Source: Escherichia coli (GTDB lineage: Bacteria > Pseudomonadota > Gammaproteobacteria > Enterobacterales > Enterobacteriaceae). Taken from it: a stretch of DNA of 64,000 nucleotides. The position numbers and the translations under genes are program-made. The notes below the pieces were generated by a model. That model made no database searches and was not told where the DNA came from. It saw nothing but the letters and a program-made list of their open reading frames with translations. How positions within the stretch are numbered: position 1 is the first letter of the stretch; the number at the start of each line of letters is the position of its first letter. Positions 19,706 to 60,431 of the stretch are shown here, piece after piece. The stretch lies in NCBI RefSeq assembly GCF_050320075.1, contig NZ_CP190018.1. One strand, written 5' to 3'.

Positions 19706-21178
19706 ATGGTACCTGTGGTCGCGCTTGTCGGGCGCCCTAACGTAGGAAAATCCACGTTATTTAACCGTCTAACTCGCACCCGAGATGCGCTGGTTGCGGA
19801 TTTCCCGGGTCTGACTCGTGACCGTAAGTACGGTCGTGCAGAAATTGAAGGCCGCGAGTTTATTTGTATTGATACTGGTGGGATTGATGGCACCGAAGAC
19901 GGTGTAGAGACACGTATGGCGGAACAGTCGCTGCTGGCGATTGAAGAAGCGGACGTCGTACTGTTTATGGTGGATGCGCGCGCGGGCCTGATGCCGGCGG
20001 ATGAAGCGATTGCCAAACATCTGCGCTCCCGTGAAAAACCGACCTTCCTGGTGGCAAACAAAACTGACGGTCTGGATCCCGATCAGGCGGTGGTTGATTT
20101 CTACTCGCTTGGTTTAGGGGAAATCTACCCGATCGCCGCGTCTCACGGTCGTGGCGTATTAAGTCTGCTGGAGCACGTGCTGCTGCCGTGGATGGAAGAT
20201 CTCGCACCGCAAGAAGAAGTCGACGAAGACGCCGAATACTGGGCGCAATTTGAAGCGGAAGAGAACGGCGAAGAAGAAGAGGAAGACGACTTCGACCCGC
20301 AAAGTCTGCCGATCAAACTGGCGATTGTGGGTCGTCCGAACGTAGGTAAGTCTACACTCACTAACCGTATTCTTGGTGAAGAGCGCGTTGTTGTTTATGA
20401 TATGCCTGGTACGACGCGTGACAGTATCTACATTCCAATGGAACGCGATGGACGTGAGTATGTGCTCATTGACACCGCTGGCGTACGTAAACGCGGCAAA
20501 ATCACCGATGCTGTAGAGAAATTCTCGGTAATCAAAACGTTGCAGGCCATTGAAGATGCCAACGTGGTGATGTTAGTGATTGATGCGCGCGAAGGTATTT
20601 CCGATCAGGATCTCTCCCTGCTGGGCTTTATTCTCAATAGTGGGCGCTCACTTGTCATTGTGGTGAATAAGTGGGATGGCCTGAGCCAGGAAGTGAAAGA
20701 GCAGGTGAAAGAAACGCTGGACTTCCGTCTGGGCTTTATCGATTTTGCTCGTGTGCATTTTATCTCAGCCTTGCACGGCAGTGGTGTTGGTAATCTGTTT
20801 GAATCAGTACGTGAAGCGTATGACAGCTCCACCCGTCGTGTGGGGACCTCTATGCTGACGCGCATCATGACGATGGCTGTTGAAGATCACCAACCGCCGT
20901 TGGTACGCGGTCGTCGTGTGAAGCTGAAATATGCCCACGCCGGTGGTTATAACCCGCCGATTGTGGTGATTCACGGTAATCAGGTGAAAGACCTGCCTGA
21001 TTCCTACAAGCGTTACTTGATGAACTACTTCCGCAAATCGCTGGACGTAATGGGATCGCCGATTCGTATTCAGTTCAAAGAAGGGGAAAACCCGTATGCG
21101 AACAAGCGTAACACCCTGACGCCAACCCAGATGCGTAAACGTAAGCGTCTGATGAAGCACATCAAGAAAAATAAATAA
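19706..21178 (+). CDS. der: ribosome-associated GTPase Der (EngA), tandem GTPase domains
   Basis: ORF 19667-21178; start placed at ATG 19706 ([17 protein letters not shown]); two G-domains each with GRPNVGKS P-loop. Confidence 0.9.
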
Positions 21179-31302: not shown

Positions 31303-31409
31303 AACTTGTTACCTCGGTCTGTTACCGTTGAGGTAATAATTATGCGTATATGGTTTGATGTCAATAGATATGAGTTAAAAAAATTACCCGTTAGGTAATC
31401 GAATAGGCA

Positions 31410-31455: not shown

Positions 31456-32040
31456 TTATTGTTTGTTTTTTTCGTTCTGGTTGATGACAAATTCAATGTA
31501 ACTTTCGATCTTTGCTTTCTCGGTTTCGGGTAACAATGCGTAGCGCGAGCGATCATAGTTGATGGTCGCAGGGTCGTGCGGGTGAATCAGTAATTCATAG
31601 CCGTGACGCCCGAATGCGGATGCAACATTCTCCAGGGTGGAAATGGAAACGCTGACCTCATTGTTTAACAGGCGGCTGATTGTCACCTGGGCTACGCCGG
31701 ATGCGCGGTGAAGTTTTCCCTGTGTTGAAAGGTCGCGGCTTTCGCTCATCCAGCGTTCCAGGTTGTGAGCCGCCAGCTGGCCAATGTCGCTTGGGCCGAC
31801 AGGCTGAAAACCTTCCTGAGAAAGCGAGCGATCGATATCAAGCCAGTTACGGGGTTTATTGGCGGCAGCTTCAATTTTTCGCGCAACCTGATCGCCGATA
31901 ACCTTCTTACCAAGAGCCCAGCGGTTTACCAGATTTGCCTGAGTTCCAAGTTTTTCAGCCATCCGCGTCTGAACACCATTGAATTCACGGTCGATCAAGT
32001 CGTTGAGATTTTGCCTGCGGACGTCCTGGATACTTTTCAT
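31456..32040 (-). CDS. prophage repressor candidate (CI-like), tandem HTH domains, no recognisable S24 peptidase domain
   Basis: 194-aa protein; HTH-like segments QTRMAEKLGTQANLVNRWALGKK and LHRASGVAQVTISRLLNNEVSVSISTLENVASAFG; divergent from a Cro-like gene across an operator-rich gap. Confidence 0.65.
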   Translation of the reverse strand: MKSIQDVRRQNLNDLIDREFNGVQTRMAEKLGTQANLVNRWALGKKVIGDQVARKIEAAANKPRNWLDIDRSLSQEGFQPVGPSDIGQLAAHNLERWMSESRDLSTQGKLHRASGVAQVTISRLLNNEVSVSISTLENVASAFGRHGYELLIHPHDPATINYDRSRYALLPETEKAKIESYIEFVINQNEKNKQ

Positions 32041-34389: not shown

Positions 34390-34506
34390 TACCAGCGCGA
34401 TAGCGCATTTTTTTACGTCTATATGATTACCTGGAAGGTAATAAAATGTTCTAATCTCTATTGATTTCATGTCTTATGTGGTTTTTAATTACCTAAGGGG
34501 TAAATC

Positions 34507-36612: not shown

Positions 36613-37542
36613 ATGACCACTATTACCAAAGAGCGACTGCTGACAATCAGGCAGTGGCGCGAAACATACGGACCTGGTAGCAACGTTGTACTGCCAGCAG
36701 AAGAAGCGGAAGAACTGGCACGAATTGCTCTGGCATCGCTGGAGCAGAATGTACTATCGGGCAACTCTCCGCTTATTCCTGGTGAAGTGTTGTCCGCAAT
36801 CCGGGAGGTTGCCAGGATTCGTGCCGATTTCGATGATTTTGACGGTGACAGGCGAGGTATCGGTGATTGTCTGGATGAGGCCGAGCAAGAGCTTATCGTT
36901 ACCATTAACAAATATGCCAGTCAGTTGGCAGCAGAACCGATAGCGACTAATGACGTTCGAGAGCAGCAGACAGCCGTTCCGCCAGTTCCGGAAATACAGG
37001 ATGATGTCGCGCAAGCAATTGAAAATCTCAAGCAGAAGTTAGTGGAATGCAATCGCTATAACTACTGCGCAGATGCAGTTAAAGGCGTAGAGGATGCCTG
37101 CCATGCTGCCATGCTTCATAGTGCCGAACCTGCAAGTAATCATGAAGAGTTGCCGCTTGATTATCTCCAAGGTCAAAAAGATGGTCTTGAATGGGCTGCG
37201 CAGCTTGCAGAAGCAAATCACCCACAAACTGGCGACTGGCTTTACGATGACCCGCTGGAGGTGGCTAAAGCTATCAGAAAAGGTCCTGACATGCCCGAAT
37301 TCGATGGACCAACTCCGGCAACTCCGGATGGTTGGATAAGCTGTAGTGAGCGAATGCCGAACGATAAACAGTATGTTTGGTGTTGGGGTAAGTCTTACGG
37401 CTGGACTGAGTGCGATACCTTCGAAGGGTATTACGATTGGTCGAGAAACAAATGGTGGGCAGTTACTGACGATGGGGAAGAACCGGCATCGAAAGTAACC
37501 CACTGGATGCCGCTACCAGAACCGCCGCAGGAGGTGAAGTGA
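36613..37542 (+). CDS. hypothetical phage protein with DUF551-like C-terminus
   Basis: 309-aa ORF; C-terminal WISCSERMPNDKQYVWCW...VTHWMPLPEPP resembles the phage DUF551 domain. Confidence 0.5.
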   Translation: MTTITKERLLTIRQWRETYGPGSNVVLPAEEAEELARIALASLEQNVLSGNSPLIPGEVLSAIREVARIRADFDDFDGDRRGIGDCLDEAEQELIVTINKYASQLAAEPIATNDVREQQTAVPPVPEIQDDVAQAIENLKQKLVECNRYNYCADAVKGVEDACHAAMLHSAEPASNHEELPLDYLQGQKDGLEWAAQLAEANHPQTGDWLYDDPLEVAKAIRKGPDMPEFDGPTPATPDGWISCSERMPNDKQYVWCWGKSYGWTECDTFEGYYDWSRNKWWAVTDDGEEPASKVTHWMPLPEPPQEVK

Positions 37543-37647
37543 TGAACAAGTGCAACGCTCTGCTTTATGCCATGGTGATTGGTTTCGGCCTGGTTGCTGG
37601 TATCCGGGTTTATATTACCTGGGAGTCATTAATCAATCTGGCGTGGA

Positions 37648-37995
37648 GTGCGATTCGTGGCTAAATCCCCCGCAGAACGCAAAGCCGCGCAGCGCGCTCG
37701 GCAGTCCGCCGCCGGTGAGCGCAAAATTGAACTGGTGCTGGATAAGCAGGAGCAGGAAATGCTGGAGCGTAACTGTGCCACGCGTCGCCCCGGGCGTGCG
37801 CCTTACGAATTTGGGGAGTATATAGCGTTACTGATCCGCCAGGATGATGCACGCGTGCGCGGGCGTATAAAATCGATTAGCAGAAAACGTTGCGGTAAGT
37901 GCGGCGAGAAAGTTCCCGTTAATTCATGCCCGTGTAATGGTGACTCGCAATGCTGGGTGACTAAAGGCTGGCATGAAACGAAATTAATAGTGTGA
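37648..37995 (+). CDS. zinc-finger protein immediately upstream of the terminase genes (candidate late regulator)
   Basis: 115-aa basic protein with cysteine cluster CGKCGEKVPVNSCPCNGDSQC; stop codon lies inside a GTGACATGTCAC palindrome. Confidence 0.45.
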   Translation: MRFVAKSPAERKAAQRARQSAAGERKIELVLDKQEQEMLERNCATRRPGRAPYEFGEYIALLIRQDDARVRGRIKSISRKRCGKCGEKVPVNSCPCNGDSQCWVTKGWHETKLIV

Positions 37996-38044
37996 CATGT
38001 CACGAGTAGATTATGCATGATGAATTTGATGGGTTTTGAATACT

Positions 38045-38070
38045 GCCGCCAACTATGGCGGCTTTATTTT
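38045..38070 (+). terminator. intrinsic terminator between the early region and the terminase genes
   Basis: Hairpin gccgccaactatggcggc followed by tttatttt. Confidence 0.55.
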
Positions 38071-38113
38071 GCATGGTACTATTACCACAACGGTAACAAT
38101 TACCATGGTGGTT

Positions 38114-38710
38114 ATGATGCCTGCTGAACCTAAAACCTATAAACGCAAATCAACGCAATTTAAGCCACTAACCGCAATGCAGGAGGCTTATTGCCAGTCA
38201 TACATCAAAACGCCTGAAAACCAGACTCAGGCAGCGATTAACGCAGGATTCTCCCCAAATACAGCGGCAGTTAAAGCCAGTGTCATGATGCGCGATGAAC
38301 GCATTCAAAAACGGATTGCCGAGTTGATGGAGGAGCGCAACAAACGAATGCGCGTCAGTGCCGATTACGTTCTCATGCGCCTGGTGGAGATCGACCAGAT
38401 GGACGTGATTGATATCCTCAATGACGATGGGAGCCTTAAGCCAATCCGCGAGTGGCCGAAAATCTGGCGCACTACGCTTAGTGGCTTTGATCTGTCATCG
38501 ACCATCATGAACATGAACGAGGATTCGATAGAGACAATTCTCAAAAAAATTAAATGGCCTGACAAGGTGAAGAACCTCGAACTGATTGGTAAGCACGTCG
38601 ACGTCAATGCATTCAAAGAACGCCTGGATGTTAATGTGAATGTGACAATTGCTGATCGCATAGCGGCAGCCAGGAAGCGACTCAAAGAACGTCAGGATGG
38701 TAATCAGTGA
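38114..38710 (+). CDS. terminase small subunit
   Basis: ORF 38036-38710; start placed at ATG 38114/38117 (MPAEPKTYKRKS...); directly upstream of, and overlapping, the large terminase gene (GTGA). Confidence 0.6.
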   Translation: MMPAEPKTYKRKSTQFKPLTAMQEAYCQSYIKTPENQTQAAINAGFSPNTAAVKASVMMRDERIQKRIAELMEERNKRMRVSADYVLMRLVEIDQMDVIDILNDDGSLKPIREWPKIWRTTLSGFDLSSTIMNMNEDSIETILKKIKWPDKVKNLELIGKHVDVNAFKERLDVNVNVTIADRIAAARKRLKERQDGNQ

Positions 38711-40182: not shown

Positions 40183-40272
40183 TCCGTTAGCGGGGATAAT
40201 GACGGAGATATCCTCTGGTGAGGATAAAACAAAGCCAGCTCATCGGCTGGCTGTTTGTGACATGTCACGGTG

Positions 40273-40847: not shown

Positions 40848-40924
40848 TGGCGTGGCATGCAGGATTCGAACCTGCGACCAACCGCTTAGAAGGCGGTTGC
40901 TCTGTCCAACTGAGCTAATGCCAC
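40848..40924 (-). tRNA. tRNA-Arg (anticodon UCU), phage-encoded
   Basis: Manual cloverleaf: acceptor GTGGCAT/ATGCCAC, D-arm GCTC/GAGC, anticodon stem ACCGC/GCGGT, loop CTTCTAA (UCU), T-arm GCAGG-TTCGAAT-CCTGC, discriminator G, CCA encoded; closely resembles host argU. Confidence 0.85.
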
Positions 40925-41352
40925 AACGCTGAGAGCACTTAGCCTGTTAAGTGCGCCACACTTTGTCGCAGCTCCATAAATGCTCTCATCGTTGTACCCT
41001 CGTCTCTTCCGAGGCGTCACACCGAATCGCCGGGATGGTGAATCCCCGTGCGCGGAATAAAACCGCTCGACTTGCACATTCCGGCTACCTGGTTCGTTTG
41101 CCCGAGCAAGGGAGGGTGCCCCTTAAACGTATCCAGACCGCTATCGGCGCATGTGCCATACGCCGTACTGCTCAAAATAAAAGCTCACTCCACCTGTTCA
41201 ATTTAACGACAAGCCAGTCAGGTTAATAACCGGAATGAACCATTTACTTACCTGAAAGGTAATAATTCGTGCGTTAAATGTCAACTACCTACGATAAATA
41301 AATCATATGTGGTTAAATTGGTAATAATTTAATTGCGTACGGAGTCATTGAT

Positions 41353-57471: not shown

Positions 57472-57768
57472 ATGCAAGCGATAGGATTCATTGTTTATAT
57501 CGTCGTTGGTCTTTTTCAGTTGGCAGCAATTATGGCTGGGCTTGAATCATGGTGGGGATTGCACTGGATAATTGCAGCCCCCATTGCTTTCATCGTGAGC
57601 TATATTCCATTTGTTGGAGCGATTGTTGGTATGGTTGGTGCTGTGGATGTATGGCGGTGGGAGTGGTGGCAGGCTGGCCTTCTCTTCTTTGGTGGGATCA
57701 TCTTTGCTATTGTCTGCGGTGGAATGTCATCATTTTTCGAACGGCTATCATTCAGAAAAGGAACGTGA
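57472..57768 (+). CDS. small inner-membrane protein (moron)
   Basis: 98-aa ORF with three hydrophobic helices; AGGTGA SD; stop codon inside a GTGACATGTCAC palindrome. Confidence 0.5.
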   Translation: MQAIGFIVYIVVGLFQLAAIMAGLESWWGLHWIIAAPIAFIVSYIPFVGAIVGMVGAVDVWRWEWWQAGLLFFGGIIFAIVCGGMSSFFERLSFRKGT

Positions 57769-57800
57769 CATGTCACAGGCCGCTTTCGCGGCCTTGTTTT

Positions 57801-57959
57801 TAACGAATGCCACCGCCACCCGGGCGGGAATCCGCAGAACGCCCACCGCAGCGGGAGCCGTCAGCGGCAGTATCGCTGTCGTGCTGACAACGACCGGCAA
57901 AGGCCTGAGTTGAAGCTACCAGAGACAACAAAACGAACAGTGCAGCAAATGCTTTTTTC
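57801..57959 (-). CDS. small secreted Cys-containing peptide (about 52 aa)
   Basis: Manual translation MKKAFAALFVLLSLVASTQAFAGRCQHDSDTAADGSRCGG...; signal peptide; terminator hairpin ggccgcgaaagcggcc right after the stop. Confidence 0.35.
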
Positions 57960-58977: not shown

Positions 58978-59664
58978 TCAGAAGAACCCTGCTTTGTCGT
59001 TGATGTACTCCGCGTGCGTCTGGATATCACGCAGGCATTTACTCACACCGACGATGTAGCAGAACATGGTGGTCAACTCCGCCGCCGCGCCCGATACGTC
59101 GTGCCCGTCGTCCTGTAACTGGTTCAGCAAATTCATCAGCAGTGAGTTCTCCGTCAGGCCGAGAACACCAGACGGCGAATGAATCAGGCTACGGTAGCCG
59201 GGCTTCAGTGGGGCGCTGTAGGTTTTGTTCTCTATCTTCATTGCCTGCATCACTGCTGATGCTGTGGCGTTGGCTACCTGGTCGGCAACCATCTTTATGC
59301 GTTCTTCCTGCGGGAGCGAGTTTTTAATGTAACTTCCGGTGCGGCGGATCTGAGGAAGAACCTCACCTGTAACCCATTTGCGAAAGCGGTAGGGGATAGT
59401 GCCTGGTGTTACTGCATCGCGGCAGCGGAGGATCAGTGTGTAGAGGCCTGACTCGTTGATAATATTGGTTTCGCCTTGACGGCCTAAGTTAAATTTAGCC
59501 CTTTCATCATCATCAAGAGATTTTATTGACATAGTGGGGTTTGTCAGTTGAAGAGCTTTAATAACGTCTTTGGCAACAAACCAAGGATTTCCATCAATAA
59601 CAATGGCTCGAATGGTTGCTTCTGATTCAAAATGAAAAACAGATGGGGTTACGTTAGCAGTCAT
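58978..59664 (-). CDS. antirepressor (Bro-N domain protein)
   Basis: ORF 58978-59817; start placed at the ATG giving MTANVTPSVFHFESEATIRAIVIDGNPWFVAKDVIKALQL... (Bro-N signature); AAGGTGA SD. Confidence 0.7.
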   Translation of the reverse strand: MTANVTPSVFHFESEATIRAIVIDGNPWFVAKDVIKALQLTNPTMSIKSLDDDERAKFNLGRQGETNIINESGLYTLILRCRDAVTPGTIPYRFRKWVTGEVLPQIRRTGSYIKNSLPQEERIKMVADQVANATASAVMQAMKIENKTYSAPLKPGYRSLIHSPSGVLGLTENSLLMNLLNQLQDDGHDVSGAAAELTTMFCYIVGVSKCLRDIQTHAEYINDKAGFF

Positions 59665-59817
59665 AGTGATCACCTTTGTAGTTAGGTTAATCACCACTAC
59701 CGACGCCAATCGGTTGGTGGTGAACTGTGCAGGGTTGGCGTAACCGGCTACAAAGGACCCGGCGCACCTTTCGGTGCCCCCACACAGCCCACCATAGAAT
59801 AGGTGCGCTTTACACAT

Positions 59818-59838
59818 AAAAAAAACCGCTTATGCGGC
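59818..59838 (-). terminator. intrinsic terminator after the 90-aa gene
   Basis: Hairpin ccgcataagcgg followed on the minus strand by eight U. Confidence 0.5.
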
Positions 59839-59977
59839 ATATGTGCCTCTGTAGTAACTCGGGACGCCAATCCCGGCACTGGATTTTGCCAGTGCCCGAT
59901 TACTATGGCACAAGAGGAGTGCGTTGTAAATTTACCGCAAAGGTAAATATAAGCACTCCACTTGGCAATTGCAAACC

Positions 59978-60250: not shown

Positions 60251-60431
60251 GCAATAACTGTATATTTATACAGTATCAAATAATTTGTTTGCTATCCAGC
60301 ACGTTTTGCAAATTACCTGAAAGGTAATATCTATTCATATTCACAGTCTTTCTATCCATATATGGTTTTTTGGGTAATAGAATAACCAGATATGCGGCGC
60401 AACGGGTGCTGCGACTATCTGGAGATTTAAC

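Follow-up and report, generated by a model that had tools for sequence, protein, structure and literature searches.

The matS sites of the MatP/matS system of Escherichia coli follow the motif GTGAC[AG]N[TC]GTCAC with the consensus GTGACATTGTCAC (PMC3603311; PMC8669397), and prophages have been reported to avoid true matS (PMC3603311). In phages of the genus Uetakevirus, the repressor Rep of SPC32H has been described as a DNA-bound tetramer with two pairs of DNA-binding domains. This tetramer is said to engage two palindromes at once, reportedly in work by Kim et al. in PNAS in 2016. The paper on ZX5 contains over-expression data for the repressor and the antirepressor and no operator map. Here, we analyzed a stretch of 64,000 nucleotides from E. 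coli (contig NZ_CP190018.1 of the RefSeq assembly GCF_050320075.1), referred to below as the window, which is E. coli chromosome with a Uetakevirus (epsilon15/phiV10-like) prophage at guaA. At the junction between the early-right operon of this prophage and its terminase genes terS-terL, the last early gene encodes a predicted ribbon-helix-helix (RHH) protein with a zinc knuckle (the RHH-Zn protein), and its 3' end is accompanied by a palindrome, GTGAC-N2-GTCAC, which is very probably the DNA site of this protein.

A palindrome that accompanies the RHH-Zn gene

The window contains exactly three copies of GTGACATGTCAC (S1-S3, Table 1), and all of them lie inside the prophage, each at the end of an operon, where about 0.04 occurrences of GTGAC-N2-GTCAC are expected per prophage or phage genome. 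S2 is located 4 nt past the terL terminator and has counterparts at the same place in epsilon15 (2142) and phiV10 (2262), and S3 is found at the same place in epsilon15 (19517). In epsilon15, all three sites recur at equivalent places, although its RHH-Zn protein is only ~80% identical.

The association of the site with the gene extends to other phages. Pectobacterium phage ZF40 has three exact copies of GTGACATGTCAC, one of which starts 3 nt past the stop codon of the homolog; N15 has three GTGAC(TG/CA)GTCAC sites, one on the stop codon of gp46; and Pantoea phage AH07 has two GTGAC-N2-GTCAC sites, one on the stop codon of its homolog. The TGA stop codon lies inside the palindrome in epsilon15-like phages, N15, phiKO2, AH07, the Yersinia phage YenM_31.17, and the metagenomic lineage L219, whose protein shares 33% identity. 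Vibrio phage K303 and the lineages L220, L221/222, L223/224 and L226/227 (31-36% identity) have one site or two in the surrounding few kb. The GTGAC-N2-GTCAC sequence or a one-mismatch variant was present beside the gene family in every lineage inspected, and the RHH-Zn gene was the sole gene common to all site-bearing loci inspected. For a reverse test, the IMG/VR collection was scanned with the perfect 14-mer TGTGACATGTCACA, and 80 chunks were picked solely for carrying it. A family member was also encoded in 21 of these 80 chunks, and in 13 of the 21 the site touches the stop codon. This co-occurrence of gene and site across lineages argues strongly that the palindrome is the cognate DNA site of the RHH-Zn protein. 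The sequence of the site was not found in the literature searched, and the names of the family in databases are uninformative; the gene-site module appears to be undescribed.

Other explanations of the palindrome itself were considered and rejected. As an RNA hairpin it is too weak (-2.9 kcal/mol), and it does not fit a CRP site, because its arms are 4 nt apart and not 6. A packaging (pac) site flanking terS-terL was discarded, since the sites of N15, ZF40 and AH07 lie far from the terminase genes. In N15 (L218), the three sites (28550, 33237 and 39269) are located inside repA, downstream of gene 33 and on the gp46 stop, and none of them is annotated. In two distant lineages, Vibrio K303 (L012, 8214) and L226 (10095)/L227 (8737), the gene of the terminase small subunit is preceded at ~30 nt by an GTGACACGTCAC site, and the site may be linked to packaging genes in these lineages.

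Sequence and predicted structure of the RHH-Zn protein

The protein encoded at the junction has 112 amino acids (aa), an isoelectric point of 9.7 and 6 Cys residues. The first-pass annotation had rightly noticed a basic, Cys-rich protein here and gave its length as 115 aa. The open reading frame (ORF) does run for 115 aa from GTG 37648, but both the Prokaryotic Genome Annotation Pipeline (PGAP) and the family alignment favor GTG 37657, in line with the MAKSP/MPKSP start of all homologs, and the length of 115 aa was therefore revised to 112.

The protein matches phrog_536 of the PHROGs database, labelled 'transcriptional regulator' (E 5e-54), whereas single-protein searches of Pfam, NCBIfam and PDB sequences returned no match. 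It belongs to the family of epsilon15 gp49, phiV10 gp55 and N15 gp46, which is small: at 50% identity, 1.8 billion proteins contain 148 clusters of it. Identity to the 112-aa protein is 81-91% in epsilon15 and phiV10 and ~37% in N15, and further members are phiKO2 gp45 and proteins of P2-like Yersinia phages, Pectobacterium ZF40, Pantoea AH07, and Vibrio and Aeromonas phages. The matches in AFDB50 are all family members named 'uncharacterized' or 'phage protein'.

The family alignment shows a basic N-terminal helix, a strand-helix-helix segment with PY..EY..LIR, a long helix, and a C-terminal knuckle with the consensus C-x2-C-G-x2-LP...C...GD..CW, in which the first two Cys are invariant. The protein in the window has the Cys spacing C-x2-C-x8-C-x-C-x5-C, and the family consensus is CxxC...C...C within ~21 residues. 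An AlphaFold2 model of the 112-aa protein (predicted local distance difference test score 90) has a beta-alpha-alpha fold like that of solved RHH proteins, with MatP as the best structural match and TTHA0139 retrieved by Foldseek with a probability of 0.7-0.8. Three Pfam families, RHH_5, RHH_1 and RepB-RCR_reg, were each matched weakly by one of 52 family members (E 0.03-0.07). The long helix together with the knuckle resembled TraR/YbiI weakly, with E 0.08 in the search of PDB sequences and an hhalign probability of 49% across 58 columns, and no Pfam match to PF01258, the TraR/DksA finger, was found in the family. Based on the model and the alignment, the protein is predicted to be an RHH DNA-binding protein with a C-terminal Cys4 zinc knuckle.

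The homologs occupy different genomic positions with a common theme, namely that the gene is the last or near-last in an early operon. In N15 and phiKO2, which have their own Q-like genes gp40 and gp38, the homolog is found in the accessory early-right region. The Pantoea AH07 homolog belongs to a leftward early operon beside xis/int, and an 'antitermination protein' (gene 52, Q-like) of this phage is encoded just before the lysis and terminase genes. In a P2-like Yersinia phage the homolog directly follows gpA, the position of B in phage 186. Several distant members, in L219, L223 and L225, are found in early regions with many genes of anti-defence type (Tad2-like, Acb2/Tad1 hairpin, Sequestin).

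The prophage and its early-late junction

The chromosome of E. coli YZLc1-3 matches the 2.2 kb around the junction at 100% identity. At 98% identity, the same 2.2 kb are shared with phage EC.W1-9 and ~30 further E. coli genomes, and terS-terL agree equally well (98%) with phiV10, whose record starts at window position 37996. The annotated order runs from guaB-guaA through an integrase, a leftward early operon, the repressor and a rightward early operon to terS-terL, the portal and structural genes, the tailspike, and then holin, endolysin and spanin. PhiV10 and epsilon15 have their genes in this order, and therefore the prophage is not a lambdoid element with a deviant late region. The interval is the ordinary boundary at which the early-right operon of a Uetakevirus prophage gives way to terS-terL, its first late unit; this layout is already annotated for the genus.

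All features listed in the first-pass annotation were found at or near the positions it gave, including the palindrome GTGACATGTCAC, the terminator and the two palindromes abutting the terS start, which are present beyond chance, and the hydrophobic ORF of 40 codons that overlaps the start of the Cys-rich gene, which is also annotated by PGAP. Its observation that neither a Q-like gene nor a lysis cassette precedes the terminase genes was borne out: a PHROGs scan of 25 prophage ORFs gave no antiterminator or Q-like match (the Pfam scan for the Q family covered the 112-aa protein), an Rfam scan of the prophage revealed no put- or nut-type antitermination RNA, and the lysis genes are, as the first-pass annotation had suggested, located 3' of the tailspike according to the window annotation and the phiV10 record, partly past the window end. 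What does not hold is the description of this late-region entry as non-canonical, since it is the standard layout of epsilon15 and phiV10.

Table 1. Positions of predicted control sites, terminators and genes of the prophage in the window (a dot marks features given without strand).
Feature	Position	Strand	Remarks
Rep operators (predicted)	31321/31383		ahead of leftward early unit
Prophage repressor gene	31456-32040	-	SPC32H Rep homolog (5d50_A, E 1.9e-41)
Rep operator (predicted)	32095		between repressor gene and cro-like gene
Rep operators (predicted)	34426/34488		ahead of a transcription unit
Hydrophobic single-pass ORF, 40 aa	37542-37664	+	PGAP WP_024946518; phrog_5525, E 3e-29
RHH + Cys4 knuckle protein gene, 112 aa	37657-37995	+	last gene of early-right operon
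Palindrome S1, GTGACATGTCAC	37992-38003	.	contains TGA stop of RHH-Zn gene; predicted site of that protein
ORF remnant, last ~20 nt of a ~70-aa moron	38017-38039	+	comparison with ~24 related contigs
Intrinsic terminator T1, end of early-right unit	38045-38070	+	hairpin and T-run, -16.2 kcal/mol
Rep operator O1 (predicted), ATTACCACAACGGTAAC	38081-38097	.	motif match; equivalent at epsilon15 12-27 annotated 'protein_bind repressor'
Rep operator O2 (predicted), ATTACCATGGTGGTTAT	38099-38115	.	motif match; overlaps terS Shine-Dalgarno, abuts start codon
Terminase small subunit gene terS	38117-38710	+	phrog_51; start ATG 38117
Intrinsic terminator T2, after terL	40233-40256	+	-15.0 kcal/mol and T-run
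Palindrome S2, GTGACATGTCAC	40257-40268	.	convergent junction, terL versus minus-strand Gp49-family gene
Rep operator (predicted), ahead of gp3/portal late unit	41247-41263	.	epsilon15 counterpart 2931-2947 annotated repressor site
Palindrome S3, GTGACATGTCAC	57765-57776	.	contains TGA stop of last rightward structural-unit ORF (57472-57768)
Intrinsic terminator T3, 1 nt after S3	57778-57801	+	-14.3 kcal/mol and T-run
Rep operator (predicted), perfect match, ahead of tailspike and lysis unit	60312-60328	.	epsilon15 counterpart 19895-19911

The start of the hydrophobic ORF overlaps the upstream stop codon and its stop codon overlaps the GTG of the next gene. As it is present in 11 of 84 related loci (and intact in every one), it represents a variable accessory gene outside the conserved junction. 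Upstream of it, an intact ORF of 309 aa (36613-37542, +) is split by PGAP into three 'incomplete' pseudogene pieces; its PHROG matches show a mosaic that combines phrog_3323/660 at the N-terminus, phrog_14306, and a DUF551-like part at the C-terminus. An intact ORF of ~70 aa (MPKIRYDLEDMRD...DEFDGL), termed a moron here as an accessory gene set between conserved phage genes, separates the palindrome from the terminator in ~24 related IMG/VR contigs (e.g. L016, 3357-3569). Its last ~20 nt are left in the window, and comparison with these contigs identifies the interval as a deletion scar of that ORF. The stem of T1 (38045-38062) is followed by TTTATTTT, and this terminator is conserved in epsilon15 and 66FD and annotated in the epsilon15 and phiV10 records.

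The start codon of terS differs between annotations. PGAP and the phiV10 record place it at TTG 38036, so that the coding sequence crosses the terminator hairpin and both Rep operators, whereas the epsilon15 record uses the ATG equivalent to 38117. In comparison with 66FD and epsilon15, the changes are largely synonymous only downstream of ATG 38117, suggesting that this ATG is probably the true start and that the TTG is unlikely. A promoter scan gave a weak match, GTGACA-18-CATGAT, which starts at 37992 and spans the deletion scar. Relatives keeping the ~70-aa ORF lack this match, and a role as a conserved late promoter is improbable.

Further features of the prophage were noted outside the junction. 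A tRNA gene (annotated tRNA-Arg; 40851-40924, -) lies between terL and the portal unit, beside the minus-strand Gp49-family gene. The BRO-N antirepressor ORF (58978-59817, -) has Rfam matches at its 5' end and immediately upstream of it, to the C4 antisense RNA (59713-59799, -; 79.5 bits) and isrK (59819-59895, -; 74.2 bits), and this arrangement suggests a P1/P7-style antisense control of the antirepressor in the Uetakevirus prophage.

Predicted repressor operators ahead of the late units

The 17-bp palindromes O1 and O2 each differ by one mismatch from ATTACC-N5-GGTAAT, a motif found 18 times in the window with up to two mismatches (1.5 expected; none of 100 shuffles reached 18). This palindrome is repeated ahead of transcription units at positions that parallel the 'repressor' features of epsilon15, and good copies precede every transcription unit, namely the terS, portal, tailspike, leftward promoter (PL), rightward promoter (PR) and replication units. 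The GenBank record of epsilon15 lists seven 'protein_bind: repressor' features, all fitting ATTACC-N5-GGTAAT and including one at 12-27 before terS, and a weaker copy of O2 is present in epsilon15 and 66FD. Thus, the two palindromes next to terS, which had been described as operator-like, are predicted operators of the prophage repressor Rep and would not belong to the Zn-finger protein.

Several operators are paired, with spacings of 62 bp at 31321-31399 and 34426-34504 and of 18 bp at 38081-38115 (terS). Such pairing fits a tetrameric Rep, given the two pairs of DNA-binding domains of the tetramer. A perfect TTGACA is located on the minus strand between the two operators of the leftward promoter. 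The sequence TATGGTT, which recurs downstream of operators, was rejected as a -10 element since its spacing is inconsistent.

Possible functions of the RHH-Zn protein

Taken together, we consider it somewhat probable that the Uetakevirus junction is gated by Rep operators and terminators, with the RHH-Zn protein at boundary palindromes. The early-right unit would end at the intrinsic terminator T1, and the two tandem Rep operators overlapping the terS ribosome-binding site would gate the late unit, with the same operator acting ahead of the portal unit and the tailspike/lysis unit. The presence of operators and terminators at each late unit points to direct repression by Rep and insulation, with no Q-type step. 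A dimer of the RHH-Zn protein would bind the palindromes at the ends of the early-right, terS-terL and structural units, and the bound dimer might affect transcription that passes over the boundaries, serving next to T1-T3 as a symmetric roadblock or insulator. We favor such a boundary function because of the operon-end sites in Uetakevirus and the repeated placement of sites at convergent junctions, also in L221. Our confidence in it is low, since extra sites lie inside genes in N15, ZF40 and AH07. These extra palindromes (inside N15 repA, ZF40 cII and the AH07 Q-like gene) are not beside terminators and count against a boundary role. The overall reading is also weakened by the two distant lineages L225 and L228, where one-mismatch variants of the site were the only ones present. 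The 47 bp from T1 to the ATG contain no convincing sigma-70-like promoter by scan or by eye, so the late unit may either have a Rep-controlled promoter of its own or depend on read-through, and binding of both Rep and the RHH-Zn protein at this locus is deduced from motifs and co-occurrence.

Two alternatives would give the protein a positive role in late transcription. According to the first-pass annotation, it might be an Ogr/Delta-style zinc-finger activator of a late promoter before terS. This would suit its position as the last early gene right before the late genes in Uetakevirus, and roughly the same placement in Vibrio K303 and L226/L227, with the site ~30 nt upstream of terS, as well as the PHROGs label 'transcriptional regulator'; moreover, the scan of 25 prophage ORFs against PHROGs revealed no other late regulator, and there is no strong sigma-70 promoter before terS, so an activator could be needed. 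However, PF04606 (Ogr_Delta) was not matched by the 112-aa protein in Pfam at E<=10 or by any of 52 family members, the Ogr/Delta zinc finger has the Cys spacing C-x2-C-x22-C-x4-C rather than that of the window protein, and the predicted fold is RHH. The palindromes at the unit 3' ends precede the next late start codons by ~120 nt, ~1.1 kb and ~2.6 kb, the first distance growing to ~320 nt in relatives keeping the ~70-aa ORF, and they are not located at about -55 of late promoters. In addition, the homologs in N15, phiKO2 and AH07 coexist with Q-like regulators of these phages, and the AH07 homolog is part of a leftward early operon beside xis/int. Activation of a late promoter is therefore very unlikely and, compared with antitermination and a MatP-like organizer, fits the evidence worst. 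The protein could also be a new DNA-loaded antiterminator which, at the palindromes near T1-T3, modifies RNA polymerase through its TraR-like knuckle, and early-right transcription would then read through into the terS, structural and lysis genes. All three Uetakevirus palindromes are within ~45 nt of rightward intrinsic terminators, the position of the gene and its site before a terminator recalls that of Q and its binding element, and the weak TraR/YbiI match of the C-terminal helix and knuckle points in the same direction. Nevertheless, S2 is located downstream of its terminator, the distance between S1 and T1 varies (41 or ~240 nt), and sites in other lineages are not beside terminators. 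The similarity to TraR is below threshold, the top structural matches do not include TraR, and the reverse-oriented genes and the tRNA between the late units make a single read-through transcript awkward. Hence, we regard antitermination as distinctly unlikely.

The remaining alternatives concern the resemblance of the site to matS. The phage site equals the matS consensus minus one central base and has identical arms, and this similarity, together with the avoidance of matS by prophages and MatP being the best structural match, makes a MatP-like reading attractive. The RHH-Zn protein and its ~3 sites would then form a phage MatP/matS-like system that organizes or marks phage DNA and does not regulate transcription, acting by site bridging or by displacing MukBEF or other complexes of the structural maintenance of chromosomes (SMC) type. 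The recurrence of ~3 sites per genome in unrelated phages, often inside genes, and the tight linkage of the site to the 3' end of its gene, which resembles parB-parS, would be explained in this way. On the other hand, hhalign of the family against E. coli MatP was not significant (probability 0.3%), the MatP domains of Pfam (PF06303, PF17414) were not matched in the family, the four-helix bundle and the coiled coil of MatP are missing, and the spacer is 2 nt in all of the more than 20 sites and never 3 nt. On this evidence such a system is rather unlikely. We also think it unlikely that the gp49/gp46 family and its sites represent an unrecognized MatP/matS-like module found in unrelated temperate phages of both Enterobacterales and Vibrio. 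By marking phage DNA, such a module would bridge distant sites, or it would help the phage to displace or escape SMC-type machinery of the host, such as MukBEF or Wadjet-like defence; if true, it would be a phage copy of a chromosome-organizing system with its spacing shifted by one base to stay orthogonal to host MatP. The identical half-sites could also mean that the palindromes are bound by a host factor such as MatP, or by another phage regulator, with the gene linkage being incidental. The RHH-Zn gene, however, is alone common to all loci across podo-, myo- and siphoviruses from Escherichia, Salmonella, Pectobacterium, Pantoea, Yersinia, Klebsiella and Vibrio, the 12-bp spacing is unlike matS every time, and no true 13-bp matS was found in the site-bearing phage genomes examined, making a host factor highly improbable.

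The junction itself is of little import, as the use of repressor operators and terminators instead of a Q cascade was already implied by GenBank annotation. The protein-site pair, in turn, provides a testable DNA target for a widespread family named only 'hypothetical' or 'transcriptional regulator', and this predicted target is one base away from host matS. The pair could reveal a new operon-boundary control or a phage counterpart of MatP.

Comparison with known systems

The closest relatives of the RHH-Zn protein are epsilon15 gp49, phiV10 gp55 and N15 gp46, which belong to the same family, occupy in Uetakevirus the same place as the last early-right gene before terS, and show no difference in kind. 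Similarly, the operators agree with the Uetakevirus Rep system (SPC32H Rep/Ant and the epsilon15 sites), in which the same operator is found before terS, portal, tailspike and the early units; the difference is that the terS site is here a tandem pair with one mismatch per copy.

The activators P2 Ogr, P4 Delta and 186 B are likewise small, basic, zinc-binding phage proteins, but they differ from the RHH-Zn protein in domain (PF04606), Cys spacing, fold, and the position of their sites (about -55 of late promoters). Like lambda-type Q, the RHH-Zn gene is located directly upstream of the terminator before the late genes and adjoins its DNA site; unlike Q, it has no Q-family match, its homologs coexist with Q in N15, phiKO2 and AH07, and no conserved promoter is present between the site and the terminator here. 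In the TraR/DksA C4 proteins, too, a zinc knuckle (CxxCG..P...) follows a long helix, and the profiles match weakly. This match is sub-threshold, however, Cys 3 and 4 are placed elsewhere, and in the RHH-Zn protein the long helix doubles as helix B of the RHH fold. The MatP/matS system combines an RHH DNA-binding core like that predicted for the phage protein with identical half-sites (GTGAC/GTCAC) and few dispersed sites per replicon, although matS has 13 bp and the phage site 12 bp with a 2-nt spacer, and MatP has a four-helix bundle and a coiled coil where the phage protein has a Cys4 knuckle.

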